The notes beneath the pieces were generated by a model, which saw only the letters and a list, made by a program, of their open reading frames with translations, had not been told where the DNA came from and made no database searches. Position numbers and translations under genes: made by a program. From Gigantopelta aegis (taxonomy: Eukaryota), in contig NC_054701.1 in assembly GCF_016097555.1 (NCBI RefSeq), positions 67,288,366 through 67,352,365 of the forward strand: DNA of 64,000 nt. The letters are read 5' to 3'. Positions 2,714 to 51,062 of this stretch are shown piece by piece. Every line of letters begins with the position of its first letter. The first letter of the stretch is position 1.

Positions 2714-3090
2714 ACAGGGCTCACCCTGGATCAAAAATACCTGTAGCCAAAATATTAGCCAAATGGAATTTTCATTAGCCATATTGAAAATGCTTTAGCC
2801 AAATTTGTTTTACGCAGTACTGTATAGAGTATTTATATATGAATATGAAAATGTATCTTTTTCAGCTAATTGTGTACAAACTGGAATAAATAGGAATAAC
2901 AAAACCTTAATGGGGGTAGGGGCAGTTAATATATTACTTCGATTTTGTTTCAGCGGGGGTGGGGTTGGGATGGGGTTAAGCAATATCTTCAGAGTCTGAA
3001 GCCAGTACCCCATACACCCACCCCCACTTCTAAGGCCTATGACATTAAATTAACAAATGTACAGAAATATGGGTGGGTGGGTGGATGTTT
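2714..3090 (+). repeat. Dispersed repeat family of about 370 bp (GGCTCACCCTGGATCAAAAATACCTGTAGCCAAAATATTAGCCAAATGG...)
   Basis: A reverse-complement paralogue lies at 20300-20662, inserted in a SINE. Fragments at 4420-4500 and 8995-9070. Confidence 0.7.
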
Positions 3091-3151
3091 ATGGATGGTG
3101 TTTTTTCTTTCTTCCTTTTTTCCCCAAAGAAATATTTGAGAGCTTTTTTTT

Positions 3152-3157
<6 letters not shown>

Positions 3158-3225
<68 letters not shown>

Positions 3226-3226
3226 C
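3158..3226. repeat. (TA)n microsatellite of about 34 units, followed by a T-run at 3292-3322
   Basis: Read directly. Confidence 0.95.
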
Positions 3227-5699
3227 TCATTATTTCTTTAAATAGCAATCTTTATGTTACTTTGAATAACTTCTTTTAAAATTATTATTATTATTATTTT
3301 TTTTTTTTTTTTTTTTTTTTTAAGTGACCCATCAATTCCCCACCCCATGTATGTGCCATGTTGTTGCTGTTGATTTCAGCGTCGTGTTAAATGCTTGTTG
3401 TGATTTCTGCTTACAAAATACCTCAGCTAAGAATGCCGACTTCACCACAGTATACTCCATTTATTAAAAAACCCCAACAAAAAAACAAAAACAAAACCCC
3501 CAACAACAAATCCTTTCATAAAATAAAAATTTACAGTCTTTATAAAATCCAGCTAACTTATTAAATGTCACCTCACAGTCTTACAAATTTATATCTAAAA
3601 TTATCTAACAAATATGATTACTGTAAAATTTTATTCAGTGTACATTTAACTGCAATTTGTATAATTTAAATACTGCATGTTCATTTCCGGCGATCATGAT
3701 CTGCATGCGTGCTCTCGACCATGGGTACGAAACTAAAAAAGATAAAGGAATAAACAAAAACTGCAGTTAGGTATTCATTGATGTGAATAACTATTGTTTT
3801 TCTACAAATTTACATAAAGATTCATTTTTGCGTAATCGTATTGTTTAATGGCCGCAACGATGTCTCTTGACACGCGGGTATCAGCTGACTCTGAAGCGTG
3901 ACGTATGTTCGCGCCAAGAGCTGTCCTCAGTTCAGCCAACGAACGTTCTTCCTAACGTTCGCTAACTATTTGATTGGTGTTCGTCGTGTCCATTTGGTTT
4001 AACGTGAAGCGCACAAACCAGTCTAAACAACGTTTTGTTTTCGCTCGGTCTGGCTGAACTCAGACCTTGAGATGGCCTACATGTCTTTTGGCCCTGAACT
4101 GGCATGTGTAATTCAAATTGACACGCATTGTGGGTCTGTTTTTATTACTTTGGTTCATAGATTTTACAAAGTAAATAAACAAGTTACAGATCTTCCAGAC
4201 ATTGCTGTCATACATGTTGATGCATGCCTTTAAAATTAATAACCGTGATTATTAAAATAAGCATACATTATCAGGCCTACGCTGTATTCAGCATGGCACC
4301 GTTTCTCGTTACCGGTCGCGAGATCGCTATTACGCTAATTGAATATTTGGTAGTATTATTATGTTTGAGGTGTCGGATAGATTATGTAACCGTTTGTTCA
4401 CATCAGAAGACAGAAAATGGCTTAGCCAAAATTTTAGCCACTTGCAAATTTTATTAGCCATTTTTTGTAAAAATTAGCCCATGGCTAATTTGGCTACCGA
4501 CAGCGCGAGCCCTGAAGTAGACATTTGGAGGGGAGGGGAGGGGAGTTGACTGAGATCGAGGGCACAAAGCAAAGTTTCTAGTGGGTTTGGGGGCATGCTC
4601 CCCCATAAAATTTTGAAAATTAGATATCCTGAAATGCAATTTCCTGCATTCTGCAAGTAAAATTCATCTCTGCTGTAAGATTTACTACCAATAATATTTT
4701 TGATTCAGAATTATTTGGGGAGGGGGGGGATGGGCATGCCTGCTAATCCAAGTTTTTTCCCAGTGTAATCAATTCCAACAGACAATATTTTGGAGTGATA
4801 AGACAACATATAACAGGAACCAACAATCAGAACTTGTTCCGTCCAGTCATGATTTTCAGAAAGACAAGTTTTAACATTGAAAAAGATTTTTTGTTGGATT
4901 TTTTAAAGAAAAAAGCTATTTTATTTATTTATTCAAAATGTATGTCCCCTCCAACCCCCCCCCAAAAAAGCAGAAAAAATCCAAACTATATTTACAAACA
5001 AGAATTCCACAAGAGTAGTTGACAGAAGCTGACATCACTTCCCTCCCAAGCTAGAGTACTGGACGCGATGAAAACGAAACAAAATGGCTGCTTCTAGTTA
5101 GCAGGAATAATCATCTTTTTTTTATTCATAAGTGTACGAGACAGGGGGGCAGGCAACTGTGCCCCTAGTGCTGGAGCAAAATGTGCTAACCTGAGACCTT
5201 TTTACCATGTATTTTCATCATTCTACCCTTAAAATTAGGAGCATGTGCCCCCCTCTTTTCAGATATTTTGCTTTATATTTGCTTTATAATAGTGTAAAAG
5301 TGTGCACCCCCCCCCCCTTTTGGCACCTTCCTACGCCACTGCATATACGGTGCATATTTGAAGTGAGTGTCCCTTTAAACAACACACACCTCTGTTTCGT
5401 TGTCATGCAGTTCGTTAAACAAGCGAGTTTCTGCTTCTCTCATTTCCTGCTCTTGACGCTGACGAAGTCGATTCAAGTCACGCTGCCAAGTAAGACAATA
5501 AGTAATACTATAAGTAAGTAAGTAAGTAAGTAAGCAAATAAAATATTTCAAGTAAATTCGAAGAAGATGCAAGTCGCGCTGTCAAGTAAGACAATAAGTA
5601 ATACTATAAGTAACTAAATAAGTAACTAACTAAGTAAACAAGCAAGCAAGCAAAATATTCAAAGTAAATTAACTACATCATGCCCACCAGTAAAGTGTG

Positions 5700-5990
5700 T
5701 GATAGTCTATTAATACATTGTTTAATAACACCACTAGAGCACATCATCATCGGCTATTGGATATCAAACATTTGGTAAATCTGACATATAGTCTTAGAGA
5801 GGAAACCTGCTTATTTTTTCCATTAGTAGCAAGGAATCTTTTATATGCACCATCCCACAGACAGGACCGCACATACTACAGACTTTGATATACCAGTCGT
5901 GGAACACTGGCTGGAACAAGAGATAGCCCAATGGGGCCACTGACGGGGATTGCTCCTAGACCAACCATGCCTCAGGCAAGCACTTGAGGA
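5700..5990 (-). mobile_element. SINE family A. It forms a head-to-head inverted pair with the next copy.
   Basis: Tail A, core and partial head. Confidence 0.75.
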
Positions 5991-19780: not shown

Positions 19781-20173
19781 ACCGGCCTCGGTGGTGTCGT
19801 GGTTAGGCCATCGGTCTACAGGCTGGTAGGTACTGGGTTCGGATCCCAGTCGAGGCATGGAATTTTTAATCCAGATACCGACTCCAAACCCTGAGTGAGT
19901 GCTCTACATGGCTCATTGGGTAGGTGTCAACCACTTGCACCGACCAGTGATCCATAACTGGTTCAACAAAGGCCATGGTTTGTGCTATCCTGCCTGTGGG
20001 AAGCGCAAATAAAAGATCCCTTGCTGCTAATCGGAAAGAGTAGCCCATGTAGTGACGACAGCGGGTTTCCTCTCAAAATCTGTGTGGTCCTTAACCATAT
20101 GTCTGACGCCATATAACCGTAAATAAAATGTGTTCAGTGCGTCGTTAAATAAAAACATTTCTTTCTTTCTTTC
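19781..20173 (+). mobile_element. SINE family B (head GGCCTCGGTGGTGTCGTGGTTAGGCCATCGGTCTACAGGCTGGTAGGTACTGGGTTCGGATCCCAGTCGAGGC, family-A-like core, tail B), flanked by an 11-bp TSD
   Basis: TSD tgtaacactga at 19768 and tgtaatactga at 20174. The paralogous duplicate at about 23930 is uninterrupted at this site. Confidence 0.85.
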
Positions 20174-22739: not shown

Positions 22740-25050
22740 ATTTCTTACATATCCACAAAAACCAGGTTTTAAGCAAATTTTAACATCTTTTTCGACTAAA
22801 TGTTATTTACAGCTGTAGTTAACTTACACGTCACAGACACATGATTGTCAGGTTAACTATATTTCACAAAAAAAGAAGAAAAGAAATGTTTTATTTAACG
22901 ACGCACTCAACACATTTTATTTACGGTTATATGGCGTCAGACATATGGTTAAGGACCACAGATTTTGAGAGGAAACCCGCTGTCACCACATAGGCTACTC
23001 TTTTATGACAGGCAGCAAGGGATCTTTTATTTGCGCTTCCCACAGGCAGGATAGCACAAACCATGGCCTTTGTTGAACCAGTTATGGATCACTGGTCGGT
23101 GCAAGTGGTTTACACCTACCCATTGAGCCTTGTGGAGCACTCACTCAGGGTTTGGAGTCGGTATCTGGATTAAAACCCCATGCCTCGACTGGGATCCGAA
23201 CCCAGTACCTACCAGCCTGTAGACCGATGGCTAACCACGACGCCACCGAGGCCGGTTTTGTATGTCACAATGTAATCTATTTCCACTGTGTTGTTTTTAA
23301 TTGGATGCATTGCACTGGTGACCTGGTCATCGCCTAGGAGCAATCAGTAGTATGTTTTGAAATTGTTAACACATGTTAACATGTACATGTGTTAACAACT
23401 ATGTGTTACCAAAAATAATGCATGGTGTTCTCACCAACGGGTGTGTAGGGTGTATACTACCAAATCAAATCCCATAGACGACAATAGTAACATATGCGGC
23501 TAAAACTCCTACCTGCAACGTATCAACCGACATAAACGCCACGGATATAAATACTACCACCCCTTACACTTAAAGTGAATCAGAAAAAAATGGGGGTCAA
23601 GCTGCTCGTTTCTGAGATAACGGGTAGCGTCTATGACTACACTAGTTTTACAGGTACCCCATACATGTTTCAAGCACAAGGCTACTTGACACATTGGTAC
23701 TAGATGAAATAAAATTGCACATTTATTTTACCCAGATGAAACTATTATTTTTTACAACCAACACACTCACATTTATAACCAATCACAGGACTTGTGGTGT
23801 TCACTTCTCTATCAAAAGTTCGGTGCACCTCGAACTTTGACCCAGTCGGAACTTATTTGGTATAGTACTACCTGTAAGAAACATGAATATTGAGTATTAT
23901 TTGGAAAATGTCGGTGCTGACTTGCATGCATCTGTAACACTGAATTAACCGAACATTATTGTACTCTAAAAGTTGTTTAGGGTGGGATGTAATCCAGTGT
24001 TAAAGCACTTGCTTGATGTACAGTCGGTCTGGGGTTGGGCTATTTCTCATTCTAGCCAGTGCACCACTACTGGTATATCAAAGGCCATGGTATGTGCTGT
24101 TCTGTCTGTGGGATGGTGCATATAAAAGATACCTTTCTACTATTGGAAAAATATAGTGGGTTTTCTCTAGCCGATCAATGTGCAGTAGTGGTGTCATTAA
24201 AACAAACTTTAACTTTTTAAACTAAAGTTGTTATTACTATTTAAATTCAAATTCAAATTCAAATTGTGAGCACTAAACTGGCTGCTATGCAGCAAAGTTT
24301 GCCTAATAGATGTCAAGAAATTTCAGGGGCATAGGCTGGGGATGTCCGGGGTGTTCGGACGAACACCCCGCTGAAGCAAATGGTCCGCTTTCAGTACTAA
24401 AACATACAGGTTTATAAATATGGAGTTTCGGGTAGTGCAAAAACAAAATAGAAAAAGGTCCACTTTGTTCATATTCGAACCCCCCCAGGTCCAGATCACG
24501 CTACGCCCTTGAATGTAACATGTATCAGCTAAAAATATTAACTATGTCACCTCAGTATTTTATCAGAACATATATACATGTAGAATGATATGTGTGTGGA
24601 GGAGGTGGGGGGGGGGGGGAGGTGCACATACTATAGGATCCATTCAAATATTACGTAACACTGTCATGGCGACAATGTTTAATGTAGACGTATACATGTA
24701 TGCAATATATAATGATTATAAATCGGGAAATTATGGTCTATCATTACAGGGGGGAGGGTAGGTGTCTAAATTTTACAAAAATAGCGTTACGTAAGATTTG
24801 AAGGGCCGCATAGTGGGAAGGATATATAAGAAATTCACTTGCTACTTTAACTGAACTTTGGTGACCATTTAGTGGACTGTTAATGACTTTACCAAAAATA
24901 TTATATCAAGAACCTTTTGGATATAACAGAGGAAATAACTAGTACAGGTATTTGAAATTCAAAATGAGCTTGAACATGTCATATAATTTACCGAGGTATT
25001 GGTTATGTACATATGGACTGCTTCCATTATTAATGCTTAACAACTTAAAG
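22740..25050. repeat. Segmental duplication, copy B. It carries extra insertions at 23446-23880 and 24320-24520.
   Basis: As above. Confidence 0.75.
22868..23256 (-). mobile_element. SINE family B
   Basis: Full-length reverse copy. It sits at a different position in duplicate B than the family-B copy in duplicate A. Confidence 0.85.
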
Positions 25051-39996: not shown

Positions 39997-40095
39997 GGTA
40001 GAGTCTAAAACAGTAGCTTGGATAAGGCTGGTAGATGGTGGGTTCCTATCGAAGAATAGGCTCCAATCCTGAGTCAGGTGGCTAATCCAATGTCT

Positions 40096-40184
40096 CAACT
40101 CAATCTTAGTCCCTCTCTCTGTCCCTGTTTCTGTCTGTGTGTGTGTGTGTGTGTGTGTGTCTCTGTCCGTCTCTTTCTCTCTTT

Positions 40185-40215
<31 letters not shown>

Positions 40216-40220
40216 TTCTA

Positions 40221-40285
<65 letters not shown>

Positions 40286-40313
40286 GTCTCTGTCTCTCTC
40301 TCTCTGTGTGTGT

Positions 40314-40348
<35 letters not shown>

Positions 40349-40390
40349 CTCTGTCTCTGTCCGTCTCTTTCTCTCTTTTCTCTCTGTCTG

Positions 40391-40447
<57 letters not shown>

Positions 40448-40654
40448 GTCTCTGTCCGTCTCTATCTCTCTTTCTCTCTTTTCTCTCTATCGAAGAATAG
40501 GCTCCAATCCTGAGTCAGGTGGCTAATCCAATGTCTCAACTCAATCTTAGTCCCTCTCTCTGTCTCTGTCTTTCTGTGTGTGTGTGTGTCTCTGTCTCTG
40601 TCCGTCTCTTTCTCTCTTTTCTCTCTGTGTGTCTCTGTCTCTGTCCGTCCGTCC

Positions 40655-40704
<50 letters not shown>

Positions 40705-40847
40705 GTCTGTCTCTCTTTTCTCTCTATCTGTGTGTCTCTCTCACTCTGTCTCTGTGTGTCTGTCTGTCTCTCTGTGTGTGTCTGTCTCTGTCCGTCTCTG
40801 TCTCTCTTTCTGTCTCTGTCCGTCTCTGTCTCTCTCTGTCCATCTCT

Positions 40848-40908
<61 letters not shown>

Positions 40909-41220
40909 GTCTCTGTCTCTGGCTCTTTCTTTCTCTCTTTTTTCTCTCTCTCACTCTCTCTGTGTCTCTGTCCCTCTTTTCTGTCTCTGTGTGTGTATCT
41001 CTGAACGTCTCTTTCTCTCTCTGTCTCTCTCTCTTACTCTCTCTCATACTCTCTCTCTCTGTGTCTGTCAGTCTGTCTGTCTGTCTCTCTCTGTGTGTGT
41101 CTGTCTCTGTCCATCTCTGTCTCTTTTCTGTCTCTATGTCTGTCTGTCTGTCTCTGTCTCTTTCTCTCTCTCTTCCTCTCTCTCCCTCTCTCTCTCTCTC
41201 TCCCCTCTCTCTCTCTCTCG
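40096..41220. repeat. Compound (CT)n/(CTGT)n/(CTCTGT)n microsatellite of about 1.1 kb in ASL intron 6. It contains a 441-bp direct duplication with junction motif ATCGAAGAATAGGCTCCAATCCTGAGTCAGGTGGCTAATCCAATGTCTCAACTCAATCTTAGTCCC.
   Basis: The junction motif occurs at 40048 and 40489. A pure pyrimidine strand runs for more than 1 kb. Confidence 0.9.
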
Positions 41221-44056: not shown

Positions 44057-44360
44057 GGGACGTAGCCCAGTGGTAAAGCACTCACATGATGCGCGGTCGG
44101 TCTGGGATCAATCCCCATCAGTGGGCTCTTTGGGCTATTTCTTGTTCCAGCCAGTGCACTATGACTGGTATATCAAAGGCCGTGGTATGTGCTCTCCTGT
44201 CTGTGGGATAGTGCATATAAAAGATCCCCTGCTACTAATGGAAAAAATGTAGCGGGTTTTCTCTCTATGACTGTGTCAAAATGACTATATGTTTGACATC
44301 TAATAGCCGATGGTTAATAAATCAATGTGCACTAGTGGTGTCGTTAAACAAAACAAACTT
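44057..44360 (+). mobile_element. SINE family A, full length (in ASL intron 8)
   Basis: Head GGGACGTAGCCCAGTGGTAAAGCAC..GGGATCAATCCCC, core, tail A. Confidence 0.85.
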
Positions 44361-45566: not shown

Positions 45567-46139
45567 CAGTGAAACCTCTCAAGACCGGACCCTCTGTAAA
45601 CTGGAATTCCCTCAATAGTGGACGTTTTACAGAGTCCCTTTTTAAAACCGGCCTCGGTGGCGTCGTGGCAGGCCATCGGTCTACAGGCTGGTAGGTACTG
45701 GGTTCGGATCCCAGTCGAGGCATGGGATTTTTAATCCAGATACCGACTCCAAACCCTGAGTGAGTGCTCTGCAAGGCTCAATGGGTAGGTGTAAACCACT
45801 TGCACAGACCAGTGATCCATAACTGGTTCAACAAAGGCCATGGTTTGTGCTATCCTGCCTGTGGGAAGCGCAAATAAAAGATCCCTTGCTGCTAATCGGA
45901 AGAGTAGCCCATGTAGTGGCGACAGCGGGTTTCCTCTTAGAATCTGTGTGGTCCTTAACCATATGTCTGACGCCATATAACCGTAAATAAAATGTGTTGA
46001 GTGCGTTGTTAAATAAAACATTTCTTTCTTTCCCTTTTTAAAAACCAGGATAGAACGTAACCGCTGTAAATTAGATCCCTCTTAAAAGCAGACATTTGTC
46101 TTGTTCCCAAGGGTGTCTGGTTTAGAGGGGTTTCACTGT
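45567..46139. mobile_element. MITE (TIR CAGTGAAACCTCTCAAGACCGGA...TCTGGTTTAGAGGGGTTTCACTG) interrupted by the SINE above
   Basis: TIRs at both ends. Intact about 180-bp paralogues elsewhere in the window. Confidence 0.8.
45648..46032 (+). mobile_element. SINE family B nested inside a 180-bp MITE, with a 10-bp TSD CTTTTTAAAA
   Basis: TSD at 45638-47 and 46033-42. The host MITE is reconstructed as contiguous in paralogues 62645-62822 and 11441-11615. Confidence 0.85.
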
Positions 46140-46291: not shown

Positions 46292-46871
46292 GTGAGACTC
46301 TGCTTAGTTAAACTTACAATTCAGTCCATACCATGTCCACTCCATGAATCCCAAAATAATGAAGAACCCCAGGGCTCATATTTACAAAATATATTGTATT
46401 TATTCATTCATCGAACCTGTGCAGCAAAAACAAAAATTGCCTCCACTCCCTTCTGTACTTGAAAAACCTCCCATAGAATATTTATATTGTTAACGATTTT
46501 TATTTAATCCTCAGACTCTTTAACGCAGAAATGACAATAAAGGCCAGATGATTGATTGCCTTGATAAATTCAGGTTCACCCCCCCCCCCCCATCAACAGT
46601 ACATCAAACGCTGTGGTATGTACTGTCTTGTTTATGAGAGAACACACAGATAAAAGATGCCTTGCTGCTTTTTTGTGGCAATCTCCATCTCTTGACCAGA
46701 TCGCTGTAGTTTAAAAATGTACTGAGGTGTCATTGAACAAACATTCCCTTTTCTTGAACGACGCCATATAACCGTAAATAAATGTGTTGAGTGCATCGTT
46801 AAATAAAATATTTCTTTTTCTTGAAATAATTATTTTATTACGAAAATATATGTATATTTTTTTCACTACAG

Positions 46872-49999: not shown

Positions 50000-50059
50000 A
50001 TGGCTGGGTTCATGATGACTGTGAAAGGACTTCCAAGTACCTATAATAAAGACCTCCAG
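50000..50059 (+). CDS. ASL: ASL exon: MAGFMMTVKGLPSTYNKDLQ
   Basis: KGLPSTYNKDLQ is identical to vertebrate ASL. Acceptor cacAG at 49998-99. Donor GTattt at 50060. Length 60 nt. Confidence 0.9.
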
Positions 50060-50361
50060 GTATTTTTTGTAATGTTCTACTGAGGGAAGAATGATTTTTA
50101 ATTTTGAAGAATATATCAGTTACATTTCTAAATAAATTATTTATGTTGTTTTGTAATATTTTATCTGGGGTTGTAAACAAATAATTTATAATCTTATTGT
50201 TGTGATATTTACTGAACACTGTTTTTAAATGCTGATCATTTATGACCACATTTAAGAATGAAATTAAAAAAAGTCTTGAGTACATTTTGTCCTTTTGACA
50301 TAAGACTAACATCTGCTTGTAAATATGTTTCATATTTTTATATTTCAATCTTTTTTTCCCA

Positions 50362-50645
50362 GGAGATCGATCCCCATTGGTGGGCCCATTCGGCTATTTC
50401 TTGTTCCAGCCAGTGCACCATGACTGGTATATTAAAGGCTGTGGTGTGTACTACCCTGTCTGTGGGATGGTGCATATAAAAGATCCCTTGCTGCTAATCG
50501 AAAAGAGTAGCCCATGAAGTGGCGACTGCGGGTTTCCTCTCTCAATATCTGTGTGGTCCTTAACCATATGTCTGACACCATATAACTGTAAATACAATGT
50601 GTTGAGTGTGTCGTAAATAAAACATTTCTTTCTTTCTTTCTTTTT
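50362..50645 (+). mobile_element. SINE (5'-truncated, tail B). Its CT-rich 3' end abuts the T-run and AG acceptor of ASL exon 13.
   Basis: ...AAATAAAACATTTCTTTCTTTCTTTC tttttttttccAG|GAAGAC. Confidence 0.8.
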
Positions 50646-50653
50646 TTTTCCAG

Positions 50654-50737
50654 GAAGACAAAGAAGCCATGTTTGATACATTTGACACATTGTCAGGAAT
50701 TCTTCAAGTTGCTACAGGAGTTCTCTCTACGCTAAAG
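50654..50737 (+). CDS. ASL: ASL exon: [28 protein letters not shown]
   Basis: Aligns to [28 protein letters not shown]. Acceptor tttttttttccAG at 50652-53, directly abutting a SINE tail. Donor GTaaca at 50738. Confidence 0.9.
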
Positions 50738-50834: not shown

Positions 50835-51062
50835 AAATTCTCGTTCTAGCCAGTGCACCTTGACTGGTACATCGAAGGCTGTGGTATGTGCTGTCCTGTG
50901 TGGGATGGTGCATATAAAAGATCCCTGGCTACTAATGGACAAATGTAGCGGGTTTCCACTCTAAAACTATATGTCAAAATTACCAAATTAGTTAACATCC
51001 AATAGCCAATAATTAATAAATCAATGTGTTTTAGTGGTGTCATTAAACAAAACAAACTAACG
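50835..51062 (+). mobile_element. SINE family A, 5'-truncated (ASL intron 13)
   Basis: Core and tail A. Confidence 0.75.

Follow-up and report, generated by a model that had tools for sequence, protein, structure and literature searches.

A sense SINE at the ASL exon 13 acceptor of Gigantopelta aegis and the likely rebuilding of that acceptor by target-site duplication

Did the SINE that abuts exon 13 of the argininosuccinate lyase gene (ASL) in the deep-sea vent snail Gigantopelta aegis land beside the splice acceptor, or inside it? The gene lies in an AT-rich stretch of 64 kb (GC about 0.36), referred to here as the window. A first-pass annotation of this DNA had described a 5'-truncated SINE directly beside the T-run and AG of exon 13, and on this point a re-reading of the sequence and an alignment to the family consensus agree. 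We consider it very likely that a sense SINE retrotransposed into the intron 12 acceptor, that duplication of the target site rebuilt the acceptor, that the SINE supplied its upstream pyrimidine tract and probably its branch region, and that a decoy splice site was left behind (Table 1).

Table 1. Features of the ASL locus, in window coordinates
Feature	Position	Strand	Description
SINE 3'-end fragment, intron 2	36531..36633	+	About 90 bp, 5'-truncated; duplication CTTCATAT(Y)TAAATG; 144 bp upstream of exon 3
SINE 3'-end fragment	46759..46828	+	Match to 46817 plus tail; about 65 bp; own duplication TTTTCTTGAA; 43 bp upstream of exon 10
ASL exon 12	50000..50059	+	Ends ...MAGFMMTVKGLPSTYNKDLQ; phase-0 donor CAG/gtattt; from tblastn, AG/GT boundaries and RefSeq identity
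gACTAAC	50305..50311	+	Best branch-site candidate before the insertion; 53 nt before the decoy exon start; putative function
Left (distal) duplication	50350..50364	+	CTTTTTTTCCCAG/GA; complete decoy 3' splice site, AG 50361-50362; preceded by CAAT
SINE body	50365..50624	+	Truncated at consensus position 55; without box A; starts inside box-B-like GGATCGATCCC
SINE 3' segment TCGTAAATAAAACA	50611..50624	+	Sole adenosines in the -30 to -43 window; presumed new branch-point region
SINE tail (TTTC)4	50625..50640	+	Upstream portion of the 27-nt pyrimidine tract
Right (proximal) duplication	50641..50655	+	TTTTTTTTTCCAG/GA; used acceptor AG 50652-50653 plus first two exon 13 bases
ASL exon 13	50654..50737	+	84 nt, phase 0/0; boundaries conserved in Haliotis, Pomacea and Pecten

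The ASL gene and the SINE family around it

ASL was located by tblastn, with the human ASL sequence serving as a probe only, followed by refinement of AG/GT boundaries. Over 36.2-54.5 kb of the + strand the search returned 15 collinear coding segments, and the refined model has 15 canonical AG/GT exons in a clean 461-aa frame. The identification as ASL is secured by two Pfam domains (Lyase_1, E 8e-97; ASL_C2, E 5e-26) and by 100% identity over the full 461 aa to RefSeq XP_041349400.1, titled 'argininosuccinate lyase-like isoform X2 [Gigantopelta aegis]'; identity to Haliotis ASL is 77%. RefSeq holds isoforms X1 and X2 only, and the difference between them is confined to the first coding exon. 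Candidate alternative first coding exons lie at 30124-30137 and 31687-31712. A canonical GT donor fits the X1 first exon (MITRMTCPV), and in the sole candidate for the X2 first exon (MSASE) the GT donor falls one base beyond the position demanded by the protein.

Intron 12 is now 594 nt long, and exon 13 opens with GAAGACAAAGAAGCCATG. Orthologous ASL loci were compared in Haliotis rufescens, Lottia, Patella, Pomacea and Pecten. Haliotis, Pomacea and Pecten keep both the 84-nt exon and the phase-0 intron ahead of EDK; the introns of these three loci are not alignable to those of G. aegis and contain no T9 tract, so they cannot reveal the state just before the insertion. None of the five loci contains a copy of the SINE consensus. 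Among patellogastropods, intron 12 is absent from ASL in both Lottia gigantea and Patella caerulea: the former encodes 465 aa within 1.86 kb and is nearly intronless, and the latter has a different intron within the exon-13 region, after ...DTLTG.

Elsewhere in the gene, a degenerate (TC)n array of about 1.05 kb (40132-41219, sense strand) follows a (TG)14 repeat in intron 6. It takes up most of that intron's 1312 nt, stopping about 90 nt short of exon 7, and accounts for the extreme GC and AT skew in the 40-42 kb bin. Intron 6 also contains two copies of a unit of about 440 bp, with starts near 40060 and 40501. Within a GC-rich island at 26-28 kb (GC 0.50), the minus strand carries a proline-rich ORF of 289 aa (26833-27702) that returned no Pfam match; it might be the remnant of a transposon or serve as an exon of an adjacent gene.

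The SINE belongs to a family with 26 blast matches in the 64 kb, on both strands, that together cover 6.2% of bases. Its 324-bp consensus, defined by three full-length copies, runs from a head with boxes A and B through a conserved core to a (TTYC)n tail. In individual copies the tail takes the form (TTTC)2-4 or (TTCC)2, with a repeat number that varies among copies, and 5'-truncated copies begin at consensus positions 55, 235, 263 and 268. Box A of the consensus, TAGCCCAGTGG, matches TRGCNNAGTGG, and its box-B-like segment agrees with box B, GGTTCGANNCC, at 10 of 11 positions; these promoter boxes suggest a tRNA-derived head. An Rfam search with a full-length copy gave no tRNA match at E<=1, and ARAGORN did not call the head of the 324-bp family a tRNA, calling only that of a second family (45651-45722). 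Weak Rfam snoRNA and miRNA matches over the exon-13 copy (E 0.26-0.5, far below gathering scores) were set aside as chance, and a bacterial promoter/terminator scan has no bearing on a eukaryotic locus.

Of the 10 copies in the window that bear a tail, 9 are bordered by abutting target-site duplications of 8-18 nt, each with its own sequence. These duplications flank full-length copies (CTGTTATCTTGTCATATG, TTCATTGAAGTTC and TTATTCTGA) and 5'-truncated copies alike, and are found as well around second-family copies and two short fragments.

The second family, about 385 bp long, is present at 45649-46032 (+), 19784-20170 (+) and 23254-22870 (-), each copy with its own 10-13 nt target-site duplication. 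It has a different tRNA-like head, the one called by ARAGORN, and its core and tail, roughly the final 225 bp, are common to it and the 324-bp family. Two families with different heads and one core and tail constitute module shuffling. Five other copies (491-678, 5816-5985, 23980-24150, 44059-44253 and 50838-50949) match the consensus only to about position 194-201 and then continue into a different 3' end; they probably represent a third family in which head and core, not tail, are common. The last of these lies 100 bp downstream of exon 13.

Beyond the window, translated SINE ORFs matched at least 847 proteins in a public protein collection. The top matches came from ENA assembly ERZ25071447, in which the same SINE occurs head-to-tail at about 85% identity. 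Contigs ctg87192 and ctg86442 of that assembly are dense in the SINE (8 matches in 6.3 kb), with adjacent head-to-tail copies around 2796-3556. Among 120 listed ERZ25071447 ORFs none matched the exon-13 copy, the best reaching 82%. A full-text literature search with strings from the SINE core returned irrelevant matches only.

A target-site duplication across the acceptor

The exon-13 copy is 276 nt long and lies in sense orientation. Its blast homology (50365-50632) corresponds to consensus positions 55-323 at 91.8% identity, a divergence of about 8% that is like that of other copies in the window. Just before its tail the copy reads ...GTCGTAAATAAAACA; it ends in ...AAATAAAACA plus (TTTC)4 and is followed by T9 (50641-50649), CC, the AG and the exon.

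Both edges of the SINE carry the same acceptor-like sequence. Immediately before the first SINE base stands CTTTTTTTCCCAGGA, and immediately after the tail stands (C)TTTTTTTTTCCAGGA (50640-50655); homology to the SINE consensus starts right after ...CCCAGGA. The two copies form a 14-nt match with 1 mismatch that abuts both boundaries, and since 9 of 10 copies carry duplications of 8-18 nt, the 14-16 nt at exon 13 is normal for the family. Because the T-run, the CAG and the exonic GA are duplicated at both edges, the integration site spans the acceptor. Judged by these flanks, the SINE integrated inside the exon 13 acceptor, 2 nt into the exon, and not beside it. The earlier caveat that the T9 could pre-date the insertion was therefore correct: the T-run is present in both duplication copies and so is older than the insertion. 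The copies have since come to differ as T7C3 and T9C2, equivalent to one substitution and one length change. With 276 nt of SINE and one 15-nt duplication copy, the event added 291 nt, which puts the pre-insertion intron at about 303 nt.

Could the upstream CTTTTTTTCCCAGGA instead be a chance acceptor-like T-run, with the true duplication decayed or very short and the SINE an old intronic insertion? AT-rich introns commonly contain T-runs with a YAG after them, part of the exon-13 duplication is low-complexity sequence, and its two copies differ. In an empirical null built from random boundary pairs in the window, a 14-nt match with <=1 mismatch abutting both boundaries occurred in 0.3-0.7% of pairs, a rate that is not vanishingly small, with most chance matches coming from microsatellites. 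However, the 13-mer TTTTTTTCCAGGA with <=1 mismatch has exactly two sites in 128 kb (both strands), 50352 and 50643, and these are the two SINE edges; the only site other than the acceptor thus falls exactly at the 5' boundary. The match also extends over CCAGGA, which is not repetitive, and has a length typical for this family; no alternative duplication is visible at the SINE boundaries. We regard a chance T-run as extremely improbable.

A second reading holds that the SINE landed beside a pre-existing T9 and left the splice site untouched, its tail being co-opted in a gene that recurrently recruits SINE tails. This was the direction taken by the first-pass annotation, which had proposed repeated recruitment of SINE tails at intron ends in ASL. 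The tail and T-run are indeed contiguous and make up the longest such tract in the gene, and two more tail fragments lie in introns 2 and 9. The fragment reported within about 50 bp of exon 10 is present, outside that acceptor's own pyrimidine tract. It lies within an older and more diverged SINE-like copy (46605-46669), which shares 75% identity with the consensus. A fragment described as 'near exon 2' also exists, although the wording was generous, as it lies about 195 bp downstream of that exon. On the sequences at their edges, both are independent, strongly 5'-truncated and otherwise ordinary intronic insertions with duplications of their own.

Their positions do not call for recruitment. 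ASL introns, with a median length of about 1 kb, contain nine SINE fragments, and intronic SINEs are abundant, indeed the norm, in molluscs (PMC11481361). Random placement of nine fragments of the observed lengths over the 16.8 kb of intron in ASL would put 1.0 of them within 50 bp of an exon, compared with 2 observed (P(>=2) = 0.26), and 0.28 within 13 bp, compared with 1 observed (P(>=1) = 0.25). The distances therefore match random placement (P about 0.25), and the claim of repeated recruitment finds no support. Orientation of the intronic copies in ASL showed no significant bias (7 sense versus 2 antisense, p = 0.18). Exon adjacency of the SINE is within chance; the flanking duplication is beyond it. 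With the T-run, CAG and GA repeated at the SINE 5' edge, and with the other two copies 43 and 144 bp from exons and outside pyrimidine tracts, insertion beside an untouched acceptor is very unlikely.

An allele that is private, heterozygous or specific to this assembly, and not fixed in the species, is also conceivable. The locus is known from a single assembly, and exact look-ups of three ORFs, among them the 79-aa ORF that spans the junction, returned no second copy from public assemblies; a degenerate exon-13 pattern likewise had no match in JGI metagenomes. The divergence of about 8% from the consensus and the two differences between duplication copies argue against a very recent event, a counterpoint limited by the fact that divergence may come from a diverged source copy. 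We think a private allele unlikely.

The working acceptor, its probable branch region and a decoy

The insertion within the acceptor leaves two candidate 3' splice sites, 291 nt apart. In both RefSeq isoforms the exon-proximal copy is the acceptor used, and exons 12 and 13 join normally; this assignment draws on the RefSeq models together with conservation. The pyrimidine run abutting its AG is 27 nt and uninterrupted (50625-50651), the longest among the 15 ASL acceptors, the other 14 having 0-12 nt. An earlier estimate of a continuous stretch of about 30 nt was right about the fusion of SINE tail and T-run and slightly long on the count.

Upstream of the working AG, native sequence is down to about 15 nt, and the pyrimidine tract beyond it is SINE-derived. 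The nearest upstream AG is at -47, and a scan between this AG and the working acceptor found no YTNAY motif. The branch point of the working acceptor is probably now SINE-derived as well, within the end GTAAATAAAACA, and weak. We infer that the exceptionally long tract offsets this weak branch point.

The distal site is an intact competitor on paper. It has a 12-nt pyrimidine run before its AG, and no AG intervenes between that AG and gACTAAC. Such a complete decoy upstream would be expected to compete with the proximal site. Splicing to it would insert the 291 nt as 97 codons; these include 6 stops, the first of which follows 38 codons. A fold of 50295-50665, run to look for RNA structure that could hide the decoy AG or loop the SINE out, was no better than shuffles (z = -0.64).

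Both acceptors might accordingly be in use, with splicing to the decoy (exon from 50363) giving a stop-carrying SINE transcript that is degraded or truncated, and with the insertion attenuating ASL at the level of splicing or being mildly deleterious. The decoy keeps CTAAC at -53, its 12-nt run and an AG-free interval, and the 291-nt insert carries 6 in-frame stops. Mammalian SINEs <100 bp from exons are found far more often in chimeric transcripts (PMC3088655), and in the merle allele described below splice choice depends on tract length (PMC7349775). On the other side, SINE sequence is absent from the annotated ASL proteins of both RefSeq isoforms, and the tract at the proximal site is far stronger, the exon set by this site being the normal one of 84 nt. 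We consider joint use somewhat unlikely; it is compatible with the origin of the insertion that we favour, and the retained decoy could make some ASL transcripts unproductive. The much stronger pyrimidine tract and the shorter exon suggest that the proximal site dominates. Exonization of a transposable element puts its sequence into the mature mRNA or protein; neither of the two annotated isoforms contains SINE sequence in this way, although minor isoforms might.

Insertion mechanism, precedents and significance

Insertion into the acceptor, as we propose it, would have begun when a LINE-mobilised SINE entered the 3' splice site of ASL intron 12, in sense, by target-primed reverse transcription. 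The pre-insertion site can be reconstructed as a single copy of CAAT-CTTTTTTT(T)CC(C)AG-GAAGAC. Two nicks staggered by about 15 nt, the first ahead of the T-run and the second 2 nt into exon 13, would have opened it, and an early stop of reverse transcription would have left a copy truncated at consensus position 55. Repair would then have duplicated CTTTTTTT(T)CC(C)AG/GA on either side of the SINE. The proximal duplicate would restore the acceptor without disturbing the reading frame, and with acceptor regenerated and frame intact the gene would have survived. The (TTTC)4 tail would supply the upstream 16 nt of the 27-nt tract, and the distal duplicate would persist, with the old ACTAAC candidate, as a decoy 3' splice site.

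Priming may have favoured such a target. The U-rich tail of the SINE RNA would pair with A-rich nicked target DNA, a pairing that would bias sense insertions to T-rich tracts, polypyrimidine tracts for example. With the exon-13 copy excluded, T occupies 28 of the 48 positions formed by the first 6 nt of the family's duplications (expected 0.32, p = 1.4e-4), a T-richness that may be overstated by 1-2 nt per copy, given the ambiguous boundary between duplication and TTYC tail; pyrimidines occupy 38 of 48 in this small sample. A broader claim would be that the family systematically targets and remodels polypyrimidine tracts genome-wide. If true, each insertion would be a portable cassette of A-rich branch region and pyrimidine tract, with the AG regenerated by duplication. 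Insertions would then survive at acceptors, replacing branch points and lengthening tracts across the genome, as a sense-orientation counterpart of the antisense-Alu effect. We hold this to be quite improbable.

Stringent-type LINE/SINE pairs, such as eel UnaL2/UnaSINE1 and others of CR1/L2 type, have 3' ends made of short tandem repeats. By analogy, the present family would resemble them in having a microsatellite tail and not poly(A), with variable repeat number. The ambiguous boundary between tail and target may be a further likeness, and would suggest priming by microhomology.

The exon 13 insertion adds a case to a kind of event already on record, and its mechanism is conventional. Its closest precedent is the dog merle allele of PMEL (SILV), where a SINEC_Cf sits at the intron 10/exon 11 boundary (PMC7349775; PMC6091007). 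There a 15-bp duplication carries the original acceptor, and the SINE tail serves as the pyrimidine tract and controls splice choice (PMC7349775). In both cases a SINE lies at an intron/exon boundary, a duplication contains the original acceptor, the SINE tail takes the position of the pyrimidine tract and the geometry from branch point to acceptor is altered, the last being a prediction for ASL. The two differ in orientation and tail: the merle SINE is antisense and contributes oligo(dT) from a poly(A) tail, whereas the ASL copy is sense and contributes (TTTC)4. The merle insertion is recent, pathogenic and unstable in length, whereas the ASL copy resides in an intact conserved housekeeping gene. 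A long merle tail leads to use of a cryptic acceptor inside the SINE; for ASL, no aberrant transcript is annotated.

Exonized antisense Alu elements, whose poly(U) serves as polypyrimidine tract, and disease-causing Alu insertions close to 3' splice sites offer a second likeness, in that the terminal repeat of a SINE gives a U-rich tract upstream of an AG (PMC3088655; PMC7349775). Alu, however, does so in antisense and makes new exons or causes exon skipping, whereas in ASL a U/C-rich tail in sense reinforces the regenerated acceptor of a constitutive exon.

Mollusc SINE superfamilies with tRNA-related heads and highly conserved cores include MESC, Meta, V, Nin-DC/Snail and CORE (PMC4758252). 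The family described here resembles them in its box A/B head, conserved core, shared tail, 5' truncation, duplications and abundance in introns (PMC4758252; PMC11481361). MESC has a 95-bp conserved central domain downstream of the head. Compared by description, MESC tails, which are (CA)n, (CAAA)n, (CACCT)n or (CACT)n, differ from the (TTYC)n of this family.

Insertions within 20-100 bp of acceptors form a hazardous class (PMC3088655; PMC7349775). Among intronic transposon insertions in mammals, those <20 bp from a splice acceptor are the most hazardous of all and are strongly depleted. In mammals SINEs are depleted <100 bp from exons, and those <20 bp from acceptors are judged very likely harmful (PMC3088655). 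In the light of this depletion, a retained insertion at distance zero from the acceptor is an uncommon survivor. The locus has modest practical value for work on splice-site competition, for which it comes with a ready-made decoy, and the insertion may provide a presence/absence marker within Peltospiridae. It is also a natural experiment in how few native nucleotides, here about 15, an acceptor needs. ASL exon 13 shows how an insertion at an acceptor can be tolerated in a mollusc housekeeping gene: the duplication rebuilds the acceptor, and the SINE tail replaces the upstream tract and probably the SINE the branch point too.
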